A program made the position numbers and the translations under genes. The notes under the pieces are model-generated. The model saw nothing but the letters and a program-made list of their open reading frames with translations. It was not told the DNA's origin and ran no database searches. Shown in pieces: positions 49,580 to 58,556 of a stretch of DNA of 64,000 nucleotides. The stretch lies in contig JBMNJG010000003.1 of NCBI GenBank assembly GCA_050951545.1, forward strand, positions 1 through 64,000, written 5' to 3'. Within the stretch, counting starts at the first letter, position 1, and every line of letters begins with the position of its first letter. Source of the stretch: Limnochordia bacterium. GTDB taxonomy: Bacteria; Bacillota; Limnochordia; DTU080.

Positions 49580-50344
49580 CTAGTCTTGCGCCTGAAGTGC
49601 CTCCAACAGCTCCGACGTCAACTCAAGATTGGTGTAGACATTCTGCACGTCATCATTGGCTTCCAGCGCTTCAATCAGTTCGACGACTCGGCGAGCCTCG
49701 GACTCCTCAACAACCATCGTATTCTGCGGCCTCATGGTCAGCTCCGCAGAATCGATAGGTACTCCATCTCGTGCTAGGGCCTCTTTCATCGCGTTTAGGT
49801 CCTCAGGGGCACCGATAATCTCGAAGCCCGCATCGGTAGTAGCCACCATATCCTCGGCCCCGGCCTCAAGAGCGCTCATCATCAGTTCGTCTTCCCCTAG
49901 GGAAGTGCCGGCGTTGGCCACGCAGATGACAGCCTTGCGCTCAAACATCCAGCCCACGCATCCACTCTCACCGAGACTCCCGCCGTGACGAGAGAAAATG
50001 TATCGGATGTCACTTGCTGTGCGGTTGCGGTTGTCGGTAGCAATGTCAATAAGAAGCGCTACTCCCCCTGGCCCATATCCTTCGTACACAAACTCCTCGT
50101 AGGTAAGACTCTCCAGCTCTCCCGTACCCCGCTTGATGGCACGCTGGATGTTATCACTGGGCATATTGATGAGACGAGCTTCATCGATTGCCATCCGCAA
50201 GCGGAAGTTGACATCTGGGTCGCCCCCACCCTCACGCGCAGCCATGGTCAGCTGTCGGGCTACTTTCGTGAATGCCTTAGCTCGCCAGAAGTCCTCTTTT
50301 TCCTTTTTTCGCTTAATGTTAGACCACTTGGAGTGTCCAGCCAT
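49580..50344 (-). CDS. yebC: YebC/PmpR family protein
   Basis: MAGHSKWSNIK, YEGYGPGG, TDNRNRT, DDVQNVYTN. Confidence 0.96.
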   Translation of the reverse strand: MAGHSKWSNIKRKKEKEDFWRAKAFTKVARQLTMAAREGGGDPDVNFRLRMAIDEARLINMPSDNIQRAIKRGTGELESLTYEEFVYEGYGPGGVALLIDIATDNRNRTASDIRYIFSRHGGSLGESGCVGWMFERKAVICVANAGTSLGEDELMMSALEAGAEDMVATTDAGFEIIGAPEDLNAMKEALARDGVPIDSAELTMRPQNTMVVEESEARRVVELIEALEANDDVQNVYTNLELTSELLEALQAQD

Positions 50345-50421
50345 GCATACACCCCCCCTACCAGCTATCTCTTCATCTACATAAGTTTATCACGCAGGTA
50401 GCTGGTTGCAAAGGTGCGATG

Positions 50422-51063
50422 CTATACCGAGGTGAGCTCCTTCATCTGCCGCAGCACATAGCGGTAGACTGCGTACACCAGTAACAGAGCAGGCAGTAGT
50501 GACAATGTACGGATAGTCACCAGAAAATCGTATAAAGCATGTAACACAGCAGCCAGTAAGAAACTCCTGAGCACAGCGAAAGAGTTGGCTGCCCCCATCC
50601 GATACAGACCAAGGTAGACCCCGAAAATACCTGCAAATGATGCATGGGCCAAGGATGTGATCACGGCGCGCACAAAGACCACCTGGCTGCCAAAAGCAAT
50701 GGTATACACAGCGTTTTCCACCACCGCGAAGCCCAGAGCTGCCGTAACTGCATACACAATGCCATCTTCGGGCTCATCGAAATGCCATGAGTAGAAGGCT
50801 ACCGCGAAGGCCGCCAGAAACTTGACCCCTTCTTCGATCAGACCGATCGCTAGCAGACCAACCAGTGAAGCTCCTTCGCCGACGAGTAAGGGTCGCAGTG
50901 GCCGCTCGAGCAAGGCTGCTGGTATGACGGCTAGCATCCCTGCTACGAATGCTCGTGCAAGCATGCCAAGAGGTTCACGACGACGATCACGACTGGCAAA
51001 AAACCACACCCACAAAATTCCAGGCAGAATCGAAACCACAGCGATAGACACAGCGTTCAGCAA
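50422..51063 (-). CDS. prsW: PrsW-family intramembrane protease
   Basis: EEGVK, DGIVYA...GFAVVEN, HASF, LHALYD. Confidence 0.88.
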   Translation of the reverse strand: MLNAVSIAVVSILPGILWVWFFASRDRRREPLGMLARAFVAGMLAVIPAALLERPLRPLLVGEGASLVGLLAIGLIEEGVKFLAAFAVAFYSWHFDEPEDGIVYAVTAALGFAVVENAVYTIAFGSQVVFVRAVITSLAHASFAGIFGVYLGLYRMGAANSFAVLRSFLLAAVLHALYDFLVTIRTLSLLPALLLVYAVYRYVLRQMKELTSV

Positions 51064-51131
51064 CAGATGTGCCCCCCTGCAGCTGCCGCGGTCAGGCAGT
51101 GCCTGTGTGGTTTGCCCAAGGATCAGCCTTG

Positions 51132-51650
51132 CTAGCCAGCATGAGTGCTGTTAGATGACGCCCGTATGACCACAAGAAGGTAATCGAGCCCTGCCAGAAG
51201 CGAGAGTGCTGCTCCAGTATACAGGAGGAAACGAAGAGCAAAGAGATTCGCCAGACCAGCCACCAAGGCGGGGAATAACAGCAGAGAGGCTGCCTTGCCT
51301 AGAGGGCGAGCACTAACCACCTTGTGTTGAGACAGGAGCCAGGCACCTCCAACTATGAGGGCCAGCTCCTTTCCTAGCAGTAAGAGCACGATCCACAAGG
51401 GAGCGAAACCACTAGCAGCCACCAAAATGAGACCCGTGGCCTGCAGCAGCTTGTCTGCGACCGGATCAAGCCACTTGCCTGTCGTGCTTATCTCGCCTCG
51501 TCGGCGAGCCAGCCAACCGTCCAAGGCATCTGTCGCTGCGGCAAGGGCGAAGACGACAGCGGCCTGTCCGGGTGCGTGCGCGCAGTGAAGCCACACCACC
51601 GCAGGTATGAGCAGAAGGCGCAGTAGCGTTACGAGGTTGGCCAGCGTCAC
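51132..51650 (-). CDS. CDP-alcohol phosphatidyltransferase (PgsA-like)
   Basis: DALDGWLARRRGEISTTGKWLDPVAD signature; GTG 51650 after GGGGAGG. Confidence 0.9.
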   Translation of the reverse strand: MTLANLVTLLRLLLIPAVVWLHCAHAPGQAAVVFALAAATDALDGWLARRRGEISTTGKWLDPVADKLLQATGLILVAASGFAPLWIVLLLLGKELALIVGGAWLLSQHKVVSARPLGKAASLLLFPALVAGLANLFALRFLLYTGAALSLLAGLDYLLVVIRASSNSTHAG

Positions 51651-51729
51651 TTTCTTCCCTCCCCACATTGCCCCATCACTTCCATGGAGAACCTAGTGGC
51701 AGTCGTCCCAGATCCAGAAGAGGGGACTC

Positions 51730-51912
51730 CTACTTGAGTCCCCACATCTCCTCCATGTTTCGGAGGATCCTGTCCAGTCTTCGTGCCCGGGCCTCTAGAC
51801 TCCTGAACACCTTGCTATAGGTGTTACTGTATCCATAGGCGCAACGCAGAGTGTACAACCGATCTTCGACACGCTCATACTCACCACGTATGCGATCCAC
51901 ACTGACGACCAT
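51730..51912 (-). CDS. Small hypothetical protein (60 aa)
   Basis: Fills an intergenic gap, strong SD GAGGGAGG, amphipathic helical pattern. Confidence 0.6.
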   Translation of the reverse strand: MVVSVDRIRGEYERVEDRLYTLRCAYGYSNTYSKVFRSLEARARRLDRILRNMEEMWGLK

Positions 51913-52010
51913 GCATGCGCCCTCCCTCGGATTTAGGGTGCACAGGCTGGCCGCAGCATGATACAGTCAATCACAGGTATCGGTGGTTAGGATGCTCGCA
52001 GAGGCCATCA

Positions 52011-53396
52011 CTAGCTGAGGCTCTGGATCTCCGCCCCTTGCTGAGGAGTCCCGATGACAATGACATCATCGTACCCACGAGCGAGGACTTCATCGTACAG
52101 CTCTGGGTGAAGCCCTTTCAGATAGTGCTCATAATACTCGGTAATCACGGTGTGCACAAATGCCTCGACTGAATCTTGATGTACAAGGTTGACTGTACAT
52201 CCACCGAACCCCGCACCCGTGAGTCTGGCGCCCACGGCCCCCGCAGAGCGCGCCACACGAACCAGCTCCTCAAGCGCTGGGCAGCTGATGCCGTATTCAT
52301 CACGACAGGAGGCATGCGAAGCATTCATAAGCTGCCCAAAGGAAATGGCATCGCCAGTACTTAGTGCCCTGACCGCCTTCTCTACTCGCTCACCTTCTGA
52401 GAGCACATGACGCATGCGACGTAGTAACGGAAACCCCTCTGTCGGCATAGGAAGCGCGTTTCCATCACCTAGACGCATATAGCGCTCTTCGACATCCGCG
52501 GTCGTGACTCCCAAAGACGCTGCTACCTGCCTTATGCTCCAGTTAGCATCGCCAAGAAACCTCTCTGCTTCCGCCAATAGCCGTGCGGAAGGCAACACCG
52601 AGAGTATCTCTGAGACACGAACCACTGTGTCAGGTACACCGTAGTCCCGCAATGCATGCGCTAGTAAAGCGGTGGCTATCCGACACTCAATAGGCAACCG
52701 GTTGTAAAGCAGACGCGCTTCTGCCGTCTTGGGCGCCTGAATCATACTGTTGCAGATGACCACGCTGTAGGCTGGCGGCAGATGTACGGTGGTAGCACGC
52801 AAAGGAAAGAAGTCAATCTTCAAGGATGTTCCAGCCTGAGCTAGTAACACGACAGCCTGATCCATGCCGCCGCCCATAGTACCCACGTAACGCTCAGCCG
52901 CAGCCATCTGCTCAGCTAACTTCACCCTGTCTAATGGCCATCCATGAACCGCCAATACAGCTAGAGCTGAGGCGACAACCATGGCTGATGACGAGGAGAG
53001 ACCAGCTGCTGCGGGCAGATCACTATCGACGAGGGCGCAAAAGCCGCGCATATCGCTCAGCTCTTTTCCGTCATCAAGCGCCTCGGAGACGAGGCCTTGC
53101 ACGCCAGCCTTAACGTAATTTCCCCAGTCACCCGTAGCATAGGGCCCAATATCTGCAGAGAGCATGAAAGAACGCGGTTCAAAGCGCTCCGCAGTGTTAT
53201 GCAGATCAACACGACGATCCAGTCGTGGCGCCACAAGCATGCGTATTTCGCGTTCGATGGCCGTAGGCATTACAGGGAGTCCATTGTAATCTGTGTGCTC
53301 GCCGATCAAGTTGACACGACCGGGCACTCGTACGCAGTGTGTAGGAGCGATCCCTGGGAAACGCTCCCTGAACTGTGTGATCAGATGGTTGGGCAT
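52011..53396 (-). CDS. GHMP sugar 1-kinase, galactokinase family (GALK2-like)
   Basis: PGRVNLIGEHTDY, PAAAGLSSSSA, GTMGGGMDQ, GARLTGAGFGGC. Confidence 0.9.
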   Translation of the reverse strand: MPNHLITQFRERFPGIAPTHCVRVPGRVNLIGEHTDYNGLPVMPTAIEREIRMLVAPRLDRRVDLHNTAERFEPRSFMLSADIGPYATGDWGNYVKAGVQGLVSEALDDGKELSDMRGFCALVDSDLPAAAGLSSSSAMVVASALAVLAVHGWPLDRVKLAEQMAAAERYVGTMGGGMDQAVVLLAQAGTSLKIDFFPLRATTVHLPPAYSVVICNSMIQAPKTAEARLLYNRLPIECRIATALLAHALRDYGVPDTVVRVSEILSVLPSARLLAEAERFLGDANWSIRQVAASLGVTTADVEERYMRLGDGNALPMPTEGFPLLRRMRHVLSEGERVEKAVRALSTGDAISFGQLMNASHASCRDEYGISCPALEELVRVARSAGAVGARLTGAGFGGCTVNLVHQDSVEAFVHTVITEYYEHYLKGLHPELYDEVLARGYDDVIVIGTPQQGAEIQSLS

Positions 53397-53444
53397 GAAG
53401 CAAAGACACCCCTTTAGTAGCCACTATCATCCGCGGCCCAGGCC

Positions 53445-54188
53445 CTAAGCCTGGCTATCATCGCCCGATTCCTCTTTAAAGAGCTTTCCCGCAGCTTGCA
53501 CATCCTCAGGCGTACCGATGTCACGCCAGTACCCTGCGAGGGGATAGCCGCGCACGTCTAGTCCGGCGGCGAGCATGGCCTGAATAGCATCAGGTAACTC
53601 GAACTCTCCGCGTGCACTCGGGCGCAAACGGGCCGTGTACTCGAAAACGACTGGGTCGAACACATACATGCCCGCATTGTTCCAGTTCGTGGAAGATGTG
53701 CCCTTGGGCGGTTTCTCCTTGATCTCCTGCACGCGATTGTCGGGTGCCAGATAAACGGCAGCCCCCCTATATGGATCGTCGACCCAGTTGAGCCCTAGTA
53801 TCGCATTGCCTTTAGTCTCTTCAAACGCCCGTATCATGCCCGCATAGTTCGATGCTGGCACCAGAATATCGCCATAGGTCATAAAAAAAGCGCTGTCACC
53901 AACGGAGTCTTTGGTCAGATGGAGAGCGCTACCCGTCCCATCGGGAACTGGTTGCCTCACATAGCGAATACTCACGCCCCACGGGCTGCCGTCACCAAAG
54001 AACCGCTCAACCACCTCGGCTAGATAACCTGTTACCACAACAAACTCGCGCACCCCTGCCTCGGACAGCGCGCAAACAATCCGTTCTAGGCAAGGTTTGT
54101 CCCCTACCGTAACCATAGGCTTGGGCCTAGTACGTGTCAGCTCGGCCAAGCGCGTCCCCCTGCCTGCCGCCAGGATAACCGCTTTCAC
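53445..54188 (-). CDS. Sugar-1-phosphate nucleotidyltransferase (single NTP_transferase domain)
   Basis: GTG 54188 after AGGAGG; KAVILAAGRGTRL...PKPM, YGD, EKP, RGEFELPD, WRDIGT. Confidence 0.88.
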   Translation of the reverse strand: MKAVILAAGRGTRLAELTRTRPKPMVTVGDKPCLERIVCALSEAGVREFVVVTGYLAEVVERFFGDGSPWGVSIRYVRQPVPDGTGSALHLTKDSVGDSAFFMTYGDILVPASNYAGMIRAFEETKGNAILGLNWVDDPYRGAAVYLAPDNRVQEIKEKPPKGTSSTNWNNAGMYVFDPVVFEYTARLRPSARGEFELPDAIQAMLAAGLDVRGYPLAGYWRDIGTPEDVQAAGKLFKEESGDDSQA

Positions 54189-54468
54189 CCTCTGTAGCCT
54201 CCTGCTCATCTGGCCGTGGTCGCCGCAACAACCTGCGCCATAGCCGCTCAAGTCATGCAACCTTCGACCCCATACAGGCAATCCCCTCCCGATTGCACCC
54301 GTCCGTCCCCTAGAGAGGCAGGAAACCCTAAGGCTTGTAGTTAATTCTCACGTAAAGGATTAGTTAAGGAGTACGCGTGTCGGCGCCAACCACATCGCTG
54401 GATGAAAATCGGGGCCGCCGACATGCCCGCACAGCATCACATCATTTTTCTGGGGAGTGGTCGGCGGC

Positions 54469-55917
54469 GTGTCTGATTACCCGCGTGTTGCCTCATTCAA
54501 GGATGCTCATGCCTTTGCCGAGTACATCGAATCGCTTGGCGCTAACCTGCCCATTGATGACGAGATCATTACTAGCTCTGCTTCGCCATTAGCCGCACCG
54601 CTTTCTATCGCAGGCCAACACGTAGGCAATCGCTGGTGTATCCAACCTATGGAGGGTTGGGATGCCACGGCGGATGGGCGTCCGAGCGAGCTAACTGAGC
54701 GTCGCTGGCGACGTTTTGGCGAGAGCGGAGCCAAGCTTATCTGGGGTGGTGAGGCAGTCGCTGTCCGACACGATGGTCGAGCCAATCCCAATCAGCTGCG
54801 CATCGGCACTGACACCGCAGCTCGCCTGGAGCATCTACGCAGCATACTGGTTGCGGCACATCAAGCGCATCATGACACGATTACAGACTTGCTTGTTGGT
54901 CTGCAGCTTACGCATTCAGGTCGTTACTGCCGCCCCAATGAAAAGCACAGAGGGGAGCCACGCATTCTCTACCACCACCCTCTGCTAGATGCCCGCGTAG
55001 GTATCGATGCGCAAGACGACCGACCAGTGCTTTCTGACATGGAGATCGATGAGCTTATCGCTGACTTCGTCGCAGCAGCTAAGCTGGCCCAAGAGATTGG
55101 CTTTGATTTCGTCGACGTCAAAGCATGTCATGGCTATCTGGGGCACGAGTTTCTCAGCGCTTTCTCCCGTCCAGGGCGCTACGGAGGCACGCTGCAAGGC
55201 CGGACAACTTTCCTCCATGAAATCATCAAGGGTATTCAGCGGGAGTGCCCTGGGCTCCTTATCGGCGTACGGCTAAGTGCATTTGATTCGGTACCCTATC
55301 GCCCAGACGAAGAGCACCGAGGACAGCCCGAGCCATTTGAGCATTGTCTCCCCTATCACTATGCCTTTGGCTGCGATCCGGATAGCCCCCTAGAGACCGA
55401 CCTGACGGAGACCATCGCGCTGCTTGCGACACTTCGTGATCTGGGTGTAGCCGCGGTCAACATCACCGCAGCCAGCCCCTACTATAACCCACACCTGCAA
55501 CGACCCGCTTTGTTTCCACCTTCCGACGGCTACCTCCCACCCGAGGATCCGTTACAGGGAGTGATCCGGCAGATTGAGGTCGTTCGCCAACTCAAGAAGC
55601 AGGTTCCCAACCTGCCCATGGTCGGATCCGCCTATACCTATCTGCAGGAGTTTCTGCCCCATGTAGCGCAAGCCGTGGTCGCAGCGGGCTGGGTAGACAG
55701 TGTTGGCCTGGGCCGCATGGTGCTGTCGTATCCACGTTTCCCGACCGATTGCCTGCAGGGGGAGCTCAACCGAAAGGCAATCTGCCGTACCTTTAGCGAC
55801 TGCACCACAGCCCCTCGCCACGGCATGGTGAGTGGATGCTACCCTCTAGATTCGTTTTTCCGAGAAAGGCCTGAGCGTGCGCAGCTTATCCAGTTAAAGA
55901 GGGGGGAAACGTCTTAG
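54469..55917 (+). CDS. NADH:flavin oxidoreductase (old yellow enzyme superfamily)
   Basis: [39 protein letters not shown]; GTG 54469 after GGGGAG. Confidence 0.85.
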
Positions 55918-55982
55918 ACGTATCCCAGACTGAGGCGAAAGGAGTGAAGGTCGCTATCCTCGTAGGGTAGCGACCGCCGACC

Positions 55983-56306
55983 GTGAAACTGCTTGTCGCT
56001 ATTGTCAGTGACGATGATGTAAGAACCCTCTTGAGTGCTCTCATGAAAGCGGGTCATAGGGCGACTCGATTGGCCAGCACGGGTGGCTTCCTGCGCAAGG
56101 GCAATACCACGTTACTGTTGGGCGTCAAAGATAGCGACGTAAACAAGGTGCTGCAAATACTCCGCCAGACGTGTCGTCGCCGCACGGAGCCGTACCCTGT
56201 GAGCATTGGTGAGCACCCGACGATCATTCCGCAAGAAACCGTCGAAGTAGAAGTGGGAGGAGCGACCGTCTTCATTCTTCCCATTGAGCGGTTCGTGCAC
56301 ATGTAA
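55983..56306 (+). CDS. darA: PII-like c-di-AMP receptor DarA/PstA
   Basis: MKLLVAIVSDDD, TRLASTGGFLRKGNTTLLLG, VEVGGATVF. Confidence 0.93.
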   Translation: MKLLVAIVSDDDVRTLLSALMKAGHRATRLASTGGFLRKGNTTLLLGVKDSDVNKVLQILRQTCRRRTEPYPVSIGEHPTIIPQETVEVEVGGATVFILPIERFVHM

Positions 56307-56320
56307 CCCCAAAGCATCGG

Positions 56321-56346
56321 GAGAGCACCCGCCGGGTGCTCTCTTT
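56321..56346 (+). terminator. Intrinsic terminator after darA
   Basis: GAGAGCACCC-GCC-GGGTGCTCTC followed by TTT. Confidence 0.75.
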
Positions 56347-56360
56347 GTGCATCATGCCGC

Positions 56361-57476
56361 TCAGAAAAGCACACCACTCCGACGCGCCTGGACATTGGCC
56401 ACTAACCCCACCGCAGTCAGGTTTACGATCATGGCACTGCCACCATAGCTGACGAAAGGTAGTGGGATACCAGTCACCGGCATGACCCCTAGAGCCATGC
56501 CTATATTCTCGAAAACGTGAAAAGCCCACATCGCGAGCAGTCCCGTTGTGAGAAGCATCCCATAGCGATCGTAGCCTGTGGGGAGTCTCTTCACTGTGTC
56601 TAGGAAGACCCACAGGAATAGCCCTAGAAGAACCACACAACCCACGAAACCAGCTTCTTCAGCAAAAACTGAGAAGATGAAATCGGTGTGATGTGCTGGC
56701 AGAAAGCGTAACTGCGCCTGTGTGCCCTTGAGATAGCCCTTACCGAAGAAGCGTCCTGCTCCCACCGCGATCGAGGATTGGATCACATTATAGCCAGCTC
56801 CGAGACGATCAGCCCAAGGGTTAAGAAAAATCGTGAGCCTCAGCTTCTGGTAGGGGCGAAGAGCGAAATGATAGACCAGAGGCAGTATCGGGAGCACGAT
56901 CGCAGCCATACTCCCAAAGACTCTTCCAGGCACGCCGACAACAAATAGCATGGAGATCAGAATGGCTGCAAAGACCAGAGCCGATCCTAGGTCGGGCTGT
57001 ATCATTACCAGACCAAAGGGAACAGCGGTCGAGATCAAGATGGGCAGGAAATCGCGTACGCGATCAAAGCCTGCCTGATGGCTCTCCAGCTGGTCAGCCA
57101 ACACGAATATGAAGGCCAGCTTGGCAAATTCGGCAGGCTGCAACTGAAATGCACCAAGCCGGAACCAGCTCTGAGCCCCGCCTGCCCGTCGCCCTATCAG
57201 GAGAACCAGGATTAGACTACCGACAGCTGCCCAATAGAAGTGTCTCGTGTAGTGGCGGTATATATGGTAATCGGTGCGAAAGGCAATAGTAGCTCCTGTC
57301 AAGCCGATAGCAATGGCTACCATCTGCCGCTTGACATAGTAGAAAGGATCGGAGGTGGCATGACGACTCGCGGAATAGAGGGTAAACAGACCAATACACA
57401 GGATGGCCAGTACGCCTCCGACCAAGTTCCAGTTTACCCGCTTTACAAGCCTCTTCTCGACAATGGCCACCGTCAA
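56361..57476 (-). CDS. rodA: SEDS protein RodA
   Basis: GAQSWF, QPAEFAK, QPDLGS, GYNVIQS, FLPAHHTDFIF, PVTGIPLPFVSYGGS. Confidence 0.92.
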   Translation of the reverse strand: MTVAIVEKRLVKRVNWNLVGGVLAILCIGLFTLYSASRHATSDPFYYVKRQMVAIAIGLTGATIAFRTDYHIYRHYTRHFYWAAVGSLILVLLIGRRAGGAQSWFRLGAFQLQPAEFAKLAFIFVLADQLESHQAGFDRVRDFLPILISTAVPFGLVMIQPDLGSALVFAAILISMLFVVGVPGRVFGSMAAIVLPILPLVYHFALRPYQKLRLTIFLNPWADRLGAGYNVIQSSIAVGAGRFFGKGYLKGTQAQLRFLPAHHTDFIFSVFAEEAGFVGCVVLLGLFLWVFLDTVKRLPTGYDRYGMLLTTGLLAMWAFHVFENIGMALGVMPVTGIPLPFVSYGGSAMIVNLTAVGLVANVQARRSGVLF

Positions 57477-57503: not shown

Positions 57504-58556
57504 CTACGAATCCAGGGCCTGCCGCAGATGCAACCACAGATCTGACGTGGCCAGCCCGTGCCGCCACACGGCCACGCCTCGCAGACCAAGGTCGCGAGCC
57601 ATCAACGCCTTGTACCGCCCCGCTCGTATCCCGTCCCACCAAGCATCCCCGCCGGAGACAGTAGCATGCTCCCCGTCGCCTTGCCCCTGCTCCATCGACT
57701 GGCTCATCCGACGCGCAGGCAGCACCTCGGTAGTCCAACCCGCCCCCCGCTTATGCCAGATGTAGCCGTAGGATGGCAGACCGAGAATCAGACGATCCTT
57801 TGGAACATGACGCATCGCCTCAAGAGCATTATCCCTTACCCACATCAAGGGCGCCACCGGTCCGGGACCCGTGTGAGGTCCATGCCGATCATATGCCATA
57901 AGAATGACACCATCGCTCACAGAAGCGAGACCGGGAAGGTCATGTAAGACCGCGTACGCCTCGTGGAAATCTACCTGCGGAAAGGCCGCTATCCACAGCT
58001 GAAGGCCCCGTGCCCTCAGCATGCCATGCAGCTCAGCAGAGAACATCACCAGGTGAGGTCTCACGCTAGCCCCGAGATACTCGACGTCTAGCACCAAGCC
58101 GTCGAGATGTCGCTCTCTCGCCCAGTTAGCCAGATTCTCAGCAAAGCGGAAGGCACCCTCTTGACGACATAGAATCGCCGGGCAACCAGCTGTTGTGCCA
58201 TACGGACCTGCATAGGCGACAAGCGGCCAGACCTTAGCCCCTTGTGAATGCGCCTCCCTCACGACCTCATCGCTAAAGACCTCTGAGGTCAGATTACCTT
58301 CTGCATCAAACCGCAACCAATGAGGAGAGACTACGTCGACCTGCCCACGTAGTTCACCCCGCAACCCCGCTAATGTCTCCTGCGGATCGGAGCCGGAAAA
58401 CGCCACAATCCAGGGATGTCTTGCTTCGTCTTCCGGATGCTTAGCTGTCTGCCGTGGTGCTTTCTCTCGAGTCATGATGATCGCCATGCCGATCACCATC
58501 ACTATCATCAAGGCCAAGGCCCATCTCCATAGGTGGGCTCTATGCGATTTCGCCAC
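57504..58556 (-). CDS. Membrane-anchored GH18 glycoside hydrolase (YaaH/YdhD-like, no LysM)
   Basis: LDGLVLDVE catalytic motif, LMAYD, PGPVAP, LGLPSYGY, GVAVW. Confidence 0.85.
   Translation of the reverse strand: MAKSHRAHLWRWALALMIVMVIGMAIIMTREKAPRQTAKHPEDEARHPWIVAFSGSDPQETLAGLRGELRGQVDVVSPHWLRFDAEGNLTSEVFSDEVVREAHSQGAKVWPLVAYAGPYGTTAGCPAILCRQEGAFRFAENLANWARERHLDGLVLDVEYLGASVRPHLVMFSAELHGMLRARGLQLWIAAFPQVDFHEAYAVLHDLPGLASVSDGVILMAYDRHGPHTGPGPVAPLMWVRDNALEAMRHVPKDRLILGLPSYGYIWHKRGAGWTTEVLPARRMSQSMEQGQGDGEHATVSGGDAWWDGIRAGRYKALMARDLGLRGVAVWRHGLATSDLWLHLRQALDS

Follow-up and report, generated by a model that had tools for sequence, protein, structure and literature searches.

What does a long galactokinase-like enzyme do beside a sugar nucleotidyltransferase, in a bacterium that already possesses a Leloir operon? 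The question is raised by two adjacent genes in the genome of a Limnochordia bacterium (GenBank assembly GCA_050951545.1), within the 64,000-nucleotide (nt) stretch formed by positions 1 to 64,000 of contig JBMNJG010000003.1, hereafter the window. The host is a spore-forming bacterium from anaerobic digesters, with a genome of 3.64 Mb in 16 contigs. Read in the direction of transcription, the locus consists of:

53445..54188, minus strand: single-domain sugar-1-phosphate nucleotidyltransferase, 247 amino acids (aa) from the GTG at 54188 (PF00483; ribosome-binding site)
53397..53444, minus strand: spacer of 48 nt from the transferase stop codon to the kinase ATG (read from the sequence)
52011..53396, minus strand: long-form (GALK2/plant-type) GHMP anomeric sugar kinase, 461 aa (Pfam, NCBIfam, PDB, tree and fold model)

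The answer that we favour, with moderate confidence, is that the pair is an operon for the sequential conversion of a free sugar to its 1-phosphate and then to a UDP- or dTDP-sugar, bypassing GalT. The GHMP kinase would use ATP to phosphorylate the anomeric hydroxyl of a free galacto-configured hexose, and the RmlA/ST0452-like transferase encoded upstream would couple the sugar-1-phosphate with UTP or dTTP to yield a nucleoside diphosphate sugar (NDP-sugar). Such a bypass of GalT would be an Isselbacher-type or salvage route that operates beside the ordinary Leloir operon.

Both genes lie at the positions given in an initial annotation. All of the strings that it had quoted for a 461-aa kinase (YVGTMGGGMDQ, KIDFFPLRAT, ICNS, ECRIATALL, LMNASHASCRDEY and SCP) occur in the open reading frame (ORF) 52011..53396(-), and the nucleotidyltransferase that it had placed 48 bp upstream does contain a single PF00483 domain and is separated from the kinase by exactly the spacer 53397-53444, in which a terminator pattern scan found no terminator-like site. 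The open frame of the transferase, 53445..54281(-), extends upstream of the chosen start, and ATG 54209 and TTG 54281 are likewise in frame; the sequence AGGAGG lies nine bases before GTG 54188.

The kinase is a member of the galactokinase family, with a score of 251.5 against the general NCBIfam model TIGR00131 (cut-off 226.65) and three Pfam domains (GalKase_gal_bdg, GHMP_kinases_N and GHMP_kinases_C), all of them GHMP kinase domains. It reaches none of the four cut-offs that define ordinary Leloir GalK equivalogs (score/cut-off 211.5/499 for NF003472, 204.1/385 for NF003705, 186.5/443 for NF003006 and 153.3/509 for NF001816). Its best PDB match by phmmer is human N-acetylgalactosamine (GalNAc) kinase, 2a2c, at 247.8 bits, with residues 8-433 aligned without a break, followed by yeast Gal1p (160 bits), human GALK1 (149), L. 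lactis GalK (138), B. infantis GalK (118) and Pyrococcus GalK (109); the galactokinases other than GALK2 align in two stretches because the middle segment is lacking or different in them. Foldseek comparison of an AlphaFold model built on 42 relatives (mean pLDDT 93.7) places 2a2c/2a2d at the top with TM scores of 0.85-0.89, fills ranks 1-8 with GALK2, Gal1p and Gal3p, and assigns GALK1 a TMq of 0.72. By sequence and by fold, including the middle segment between the N- and C-terminal domains, the kinase is of the long-form type represented by GALK2, Gal1p and plant GalK.

A quick IQ-TREE phylogeny of 64 rows, without named human, yeast or plant sequences, recovers an ordinary GalK clade (support 99) that includes the Leloir GalK of the same genome, a eukaryote clade of three eukaryote-labelled proteins (support 95), and a clade formed by 31 bacterial long-form rows (support 87), among them the window kinase. 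The GHMP kinase tree had been proposed as a check in the initial annotation, which named grouping with ordinary GalK as the contrary outcome; the window kinase lies outside that clade, and the view that it is GALK2- or plant-like rather than an ordinary bacterial GalK is borne out alike by the PDB search, NCBIfam, Foldseek and the tree. With 64 rows the eukaryotic, ordinary GalK and bacterial long-form groups form a three-way split that gives no branching order, and the bacterial long-form clade is at most a candidate sister of the eukaryotic one. The same annotation's label 'eukaryote-like' overstates the rarity of the enzyme: its bacterial relatives number in the hundreds, and its best 120 database matches, 45-74% identical, belong to metagenome bins assigned to Bacillota, Ignavibacteriales, Spirochaetaceae and further groups, and are named galactokinase by NCBI and often N-acetylgalactosamine kinase by JGI. 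A pattern scan of metagenome contigs for GGGMDQA...IDFFP returned at least one 1-kb contig, and a scan of genome contigs with the shared pattern IGEHTDYN gave, among the matches listed, mostly ordinary GalK, with loci L001-L005 alone being long-form or related.

Residues R27, E33, H34, D36, G176-G177-M178-D179, S134-S136 and T393-G399 (TGAGFGG) are invariant among the 42 aligned relatives of the kinase, and G175 and Y231 are nearly so. These presumably include the Arg and Asp that act at O1, the Glu-His-x-Asp signature and the Ser-rich phosphate loop of galactokinase structures. With its catalytic and sugar-binding residues intact, the kinase looks active. By analogy with galactokinase structures, conservation of the Glu-His-x-Asp signature points to a galacto-hexose whose C6 hydroxymethyl group is free. 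Tyr231, which is Tyr in Gal1p and Phe in GALK2 according to the phmmer PDB alignment, may lean slightly toward galactose. GalNAc, which the initial annotation put forward beside 'a related sugar' as the substrate, does not follow from GALK2 likeness, because plant and green-algal galactokinases share the same similarity class: the nearest ESM-Atlas clusters to the kinase are one from Acidobacteriota and then galactokinases of Streptophyta and Chlorophyta. Galactose is our tentative first choice of substrate, at somewhat less than an even chance; some other sugar is possible though doubtful, and GalNAc is more doubtful still.

The transferase is a PF00483 sugar-1-phosphate nucleotidyltransferase, with one NTP_transferase domain (144.4 bits, above the gathering score) spanning residues 2-233 of 247 and the GxGTRL loop in the form LAAGRGTRL. 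Its top NCBIfam matches, all below cut-off, are the N-domain of Arch_glmU (191.9/292.1), whose acetyltransferase half it lacks, rmlA_long (162.6/320.25) and AglF (152.8); rmlA (120.5/360.65), MurU (114.1/250) and galU (97.9/326.8) score lower. RmlA structures are its best PDB matches, and it is weakly similar to inositol-1-phosphate cytidylyltransferase (IPCT; E 6e-12 in the PDB search, 67 bits in NCBIfam). Taken together, the partial matches to the ST0452-type N-domain, rmlA_long, AglF, MurU and RmlA structures suggest UTP or dTTP as the nucleotide, provided that the specificities of these families apply.

Comparative genomics supports a functional link between the two proteins. In a survey of 95 genomes of the organism's class (threshold E<=1e-70), the kinase was found in eight: all six genomes of family f1, to which the window belongs, both genomes of family f5, and none of the 87 genomes of 14 other families; nor was it found in 400 further genomes sampled from the phylum. 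In each of the eight, the transferase gene immediately precedes the kinase gene and shares its strand, the result of a co-occurrence check that had been suggested at the outset; in one of them (G003) a contig end interrupts the pair, leaving the N-terminus of the kinase and the transferase together on that genome's contig C11. The gene order in f1 is darA or an old yellow enzyme (OYE)-like gene, the pair, a 60-aa ORF, a CDP-alcohol phosphatidyltransferase gene, prsW, yebC and ruvC; the order in f5 is DUF188, the pair, gnd, zwf and a cyclase gene, tightly spaced on one strand. The two families belong to different orders of the class and their flanking genes have nothing in common, so the pair itself is the conserved unit. 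At the f5 loci (L101:3957-9243 in G018; L102:5935-11111 in G013), the genes for 6-phosphogluconate dehydrogenase and glucose-6-phosphate dehydrogenase follow the pair at spacings of 40-80 bp, and the gene that precedes it is of the DUF188/YaiI type.

The transferase subfamily (E<=1e-57, 40-48% identity) is found in 20 further genomes of the class without the kinase, 17 of family f12 and three of family f151. In seven of eight f12 loci inspected among 12 fetched, an ORF of about 480 aa abuts the transferase homologue without a gap, and in all four loci tested with Pfam it encodes a four-domain mutase of the PGM/PMM family, so that the neighbour there supplies the sugar-1-phosphate. At L115:52-2747, L117, L123 and L124, where mutase and short nucleotidyltransferase lie end to end as a compact unit from hexose-6-phosphate to NDP-hexose, a NUDIX hydrolase gene is convergent or adjacent. 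A single transferase subfamily thus has as its partner either a mutase (sugar-6-phosphate to sugar-1-phosphate) or an anomeric kinase (sugar to sugar-1-phosphate), as expected if the transferase consumes the product of its neighbour. It is probably the lineage's general short hexose-1-phosphate nucleotidyltransferase, fed by a mutase elsewhere, and the kinase was probably gained as a second supplier in two families.

A related kinase subclade in Gemmatimonadota is encoded close to a transferase of another type or is joined to it in one protein. In a protein of 812 aa (P0121), an NTP_transf_3 domain is joined to a kinase 39% identical to that of the window, and the first 340 residues of the protein share 53% identity with a stand-alone transferase in a Longimicrobiales genome (L004), whose gene is the second from that of the kinase, an SSF transporter being encoded in between. 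Among 151 Gemmatimonadota genomes sampled, 17 have both a related kinase and an NTP_transf_3-type transferase (partner detection at E<=1e-35): the two are within 7.1 kb on one contig in 14 genomes, on the same strand in 13 and in a single open frame in three, while in one genome they are 12 kb apart and in two they are on different contigs. Ten more genomes have this kinase type with no partner detected at that threshold. The three fusions of the NTP_transf_3-type transferase to the GALK2-related kinase (G586:C3:1709380-1711539, G544:C1:3110249-3112372 and G568:C1:2041880-2044000) are 744-849 aa long; in sister genomes kinase and transferase are encoded apart, and an SSF transporter gene separates or flanks them. 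The adjacency in two unrelated contexts (eight of eight genomes), the exchange of mutase for kinase, and the Gemmatimonadota fusions back the functional link between kinase and transferase that underlies the two-step non-Leloir route of the initial annotation; GalNAc as the sugar does not share in this support.

Another fusion is encoded by the same genome outside the window, on contig C11 at about 178117-180816 (L104:4118-6817): a GlmU-like NTP-transferase joined to a GalK-like GHMP kinase in a protein of about 899 aa, with a TIGR00131 score of 149.8, below cut-off. Downstream of it are genes for a hexapeptide acyltransferase, a Wzx-like flippase, a polysaccharide pyruvyl transferase and an ATP-grasp protein, and its relatives of 816-972 aa are found in Pirellulales, a Promethearchaeota bin and Chthonomonadales.

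As the initial annotation had remarked, galT, galE and galM are not adjacent to the pair, and Pfam searches of the neighbours found no sugar transporter or glycosidase regulon adjacent either. The Leloir genes form a complete deoR-galT-galK-galE operon on contig C4, with a canonical galK between galT and galE, and an ordinary GalK-like gene is present in all seven of the other genomes that carry the long-form kinase; the second kinase is therefore unlikely to be redundant. That the same genome has a Leloir set favours another sugar, or else another destination for the product, namely glycan precursor; gnd and zwf beside the pair in f5 hint instead at catabolism by way of UDP-Gal, UDP-Glc, Glc-1-P and glucose-6-phosphate, and we take neither side between a precursor of envelope glycans and a catabolic intermediate. 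Stretches nearly identical to the locus occur in metagenomes from digesters, bioreactors, landfills and sludge. Short contigs that match both genes at 95-100% identity, most at 99% or more, are present in four biogas-fermenter RNA libraries, and one of them (X15 record 4; 208 nt, corresponding to 53275-53482) covers 122 nt of the kinase gene, the spacer and 38 nt of the transferase gene, a weak hint of co-transcription. Parts of the window without such contigs carry no meaning in this respect.

Other explanations of the pair have to be weighed against the sequential route. One, which we consider unlikely, is that a dedicated 1-kinase for GalNAc (or another amino sugar) is paired with a UDP-GalNAc pyrophosphorylase as the bacterial counterpart of human GALK2-AGX1. 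It would fit the rank of human GalNAc kinase as best solved relative by sequence and fold, the Leloir set already present, which suggests a different sugar for the pair, and the best family match of the transferase to the N-domain of archaeal ST0452-type enzymes, which we take to accept GalNAc-1-phosphate. However, the similarity class of the kinase also takes in plant and algal galactokinases and yeast Gal1p, which act on galactose; residue 231 is that of Gal1p, not of GALK2; and Pfam searches of the window ORFs found no amino-sugar genes nearby. Moreover, the bacterial GalNAc 1-kinases described in PMC11992087 are APH/NahK-type. We likewise regard as unlikely a self-contained bacterial pathway in which a GALK2-type GHMP kinase and a short uridylyltransferase make UDP-GalNAc or the nucleotide of some other 2-modified galacto-sugar; in that version the two-gene cassette would travel between orders of spore-forming Bacillota and supply envelope glycan precursors. 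It is also rather unlikely that the enzymes are co-located without acting in sequence, the transferase being a UDP-glucose (or hexose-1-phosphate) pyrophosphorylase that acts on the product of a mutase and the kinase a second galactokinase feeding GalT, with UDP-Glc from the transferase priming the Leloir cycle. The coupling of the nearest transferase homologues to a PGM/PMM mutase is what this arrangement would predict, GalT is present, the window genome keeps an orthologous mutase on contig C16 beside htrA, and the genome has only four PF00483 loci, of which the window transferase, C11:45986 and GlmU were scanned with NCBIfam and all fall short of the GalU cut-off. It is opposed by the canonical GalK already located between galT and galE, by the fact that the kinase never occurs in the class without an adjacent transferase (eight of eight), and by the related kinase-transferase fusions, which argue for consecutive steps.

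That adjacency is meaningless and the gene order simply inherited is improbable: only two families have the pair and the kinase stands alone in other phyla, but order and strand are kept in two orders of the class even though every flanking gene differs, and the logic of the partnership recurs with the mutase and in the fusions. Least probable of all, and by our estimate remote, is a larger module that includes the 60-aa ORF and the CDP-alcohol phosphatidyltransferase paralog downstream of the kinase, in which the nucleotidyltransferase would make a CDP- or NDP-activated sugar phosphate and the membrane enzyme would attach this, as a phospho-sugar head group, to a polymer or lipid, by analogy with the IPCT/DIPP synthase pair. 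Both genes follow the kinase in every f1 genome in which the region is assembled, the genome has a true pgsA elsewhere, so that the phosphatidyltransferase gene, which falls below the pgsA cut-off, is an additional copy, and the transferase has its weak similarity to IPCT. Neither gene lies beside the pair in f5, however, and synteny confined to a single family carries little weight; the RmlA, AglF and ST0452 types resemble the transferase much more closely than IPCT does; and we know of no CDP-alcohol transferase that uses an NDP-hexose.

Several observations weigh against the sequential route that we prefer. Neither transferase type is present in the fetched flanks of any of 15 long-form kinase loci in other phyla (L001, L003, L005 and the 12 Gemmatimonadota loci L130-L141, with kinases of 42-47% identity), so the pairing of kinase and transferase is lineage-specific; of the 12 Gemmatimonadota loci, four are beside an SSF symporter gene, accompanied in three cases by an Rrf2 regulator gene, and four beside purD. 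Twenty genomes have the transferase subfamily but not the kinase, so that the subfamily has a role of its own, and, as the window transferase reaches no NCBIfam equivalog cut-off, its family match fixes neither the nucleotide nor the sugar. The transferase tree is unrooted, its outgroup branches being 6-10 changes per column, and we make no claim that the pair was transferred as a cassette. The RNA-library contigs are low-depth assemblies that indicate neither strand nor a single transcript and may include DNA carry-over. A literature search, with subscription journals and supplements outside its scope, returned no enzyme assay of this pair or of any bacterial long-form galactokinase, and the sequential activity of the pair is a prediction.

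The surroundings of the pair include further features of less certain relevance:

54189..54456, strand not assigned: intergenic region that separates the pair from the divergent OYE-like gene upstream (presumed to hold the promoter of the pair)
51730..51912, minus strand: conserved 60-aa ORF downstream of the kinase (no Pfam family; neighbour in f1 only, membership of the unit doubtful)
51132..51668, minus strand: CDP-alcohol phosphatidyltransferase paralog (PF01066, 108.8; neighbour in f1 only, membership of the unit doubtful)

The intergenic region 54189-54456 contains an 11-nt inverted repeat (54375-54385/54416-54426), no Rfam match, and no promoter-like site by pattern scan, the minus-strand site at 54140-54112 falling inside the transferase gene; the promoter and terminator scans gave a signal no better than that of shuffled sequence. 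Rfam over 50000-56500 yielded nothing above chance, one snoRNA model (E 0.17) matching inside the kinase gene. The 60-aa ORF, which has the ribosome-binding site GAGGGAGG, appears to be unannotated and occupies most of a 342-nt 'gap' beyond the kinase; it is 58-80% identical in five of the five other f1 genomes and absent from the two f5 loci. The CDP-alcohol phosphatidyltransferase scores 86.5 against the NCBIfam pgsA model, below the cut-off of 109.1, and the copy on contig C12 scores 140, above it; the window gene does not adjoin the pair in the f5 genomes. The divergent OYE-like protein (54457-55917, plus strand, 486 aa) has a Pfam match confined to residues 46-279 (84 bits) and is far under all NCBIfam cut-offs; its gene adjoins the pair in G005 as well, and not in G004.

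Pfam searches covered 47 of 54 greedy ORFs of the window and the 60-aa ORF; the remaining seven ORFs were named by eye (PPDK, recO, ruvABC, prfC and one overlapping ORF). As a housekeeping region of a spore former, the window includes a dcw cluster, spoIIGA-sigE-sigG, spoIIR, spoIIP, ftsK, dnaG and sigA, together with yebC, prsW, the CDP-alcohol phosphatidyltransferase gene, the OYE-like flavoprotein gene, darA and a RodA/FtsW gene. Among the division and sporulation genes, a membrane-anchored GH18-like protein (57504-58556, minus strand; 55 bits) is encoded directly upstream of the RodA/FtsW-family gene.

If the sequential route is correct, it would provide a compact and thermally robust-looking two-enzyme conversion of free sugar to NDP-sugar, of potential use in chemo-enzymatic glycan synthesis, and a first function for a large and widely annotated bacterial clade of long-form galactokinases. 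The switch between mutase and kinase as partner would show that de novo and salvage supplies of sugar-1-phosphate can be exchanged. The pair opens no long-standing question, because the logic of the pathway is textbook.

The initial annotation had held that known routes of this kind use non-GHMP kinases, a statement that is incomplete in view of the L-fucokinase/GDP-fucose pyrophosphorylase FKP, galactokinase with UDP-sugar pyrophosphorylase (USP), ScGalK/ScGPUT and human GALK2 with AGX1. In human GalNAc salvage, GALK2, a GHMP GalNAc 1-kinase, is followed by UAP1/AGX1. GALK2 is the closest solved relative of the window kinase, and an anomeric kinase likewise precedes a pyrophosphorylase; the second enzyme of the window differs in being a short RmlA/ST0452-like PF00483 protein, not UAP1-type, and the window genes form a putative operon. 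Plants and Leishmania convert Gal-1-P to UDP-Gal independently of GalT with a galactokinase and USP, a pathway named in PMC6329318 and PMC4722067. The kinase there is also of the GHMP type, and plant and algal galactokinase clusters are near the window kinase in the ESM Atlas; USP, however, belongs to another pyrophosphorylase family, and the window pair is bacterial with adjacent genes.

Among bacteria, the galactokinase ScGalK and the promiscuous glucose-1-phosphate uridylyltransferase ScGPUT of Solitalea canadensis form an NDP-sugar in two steps, in UDP-xylose salvage (PMC11267548). This is likewise a bacterial galactokinase with a transferase; the natural proteins are described as separate, and the size of their fused construct, about 70 kDa, implies a galactokinase of ordinary length. 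FKP of Bacteroides fragilis is a GHMP kinase fused to a nucleotidyltransferase (PMC11982464, PMC6468028). The order of kinase then nucleotidyltransferase is the same, and kindred fusions are those of Gemmatimonadota and of contig C11 in the window genome; FKP differs in its specificity for GTP and fucose, its kinase subfamily and its single polypeptide. AmgK-MurU, NahK of the LNB/GNB pathway and BT4240 of B. thetaiotaomicron, the last a GalNAc 1-kinase of the APH/NahK type (PMC11992087), are also bacterial anomeric kinase routes for amino sugars, and MurU is a short PF00483 transferase to whose model the window transferase scores below cut-off. Their kinases are APH-type, whereas that of the window is GHMP; by Pfam the window kinase has GHMP domains only, with no APH-fold domain (PF01636), and the pair is not of the AmgK-MurU/NahK type. 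The logic of a GHMP kinase followed by a pyrophosphorylase is already established, and the new part is this bacterial pairing of enzymes.

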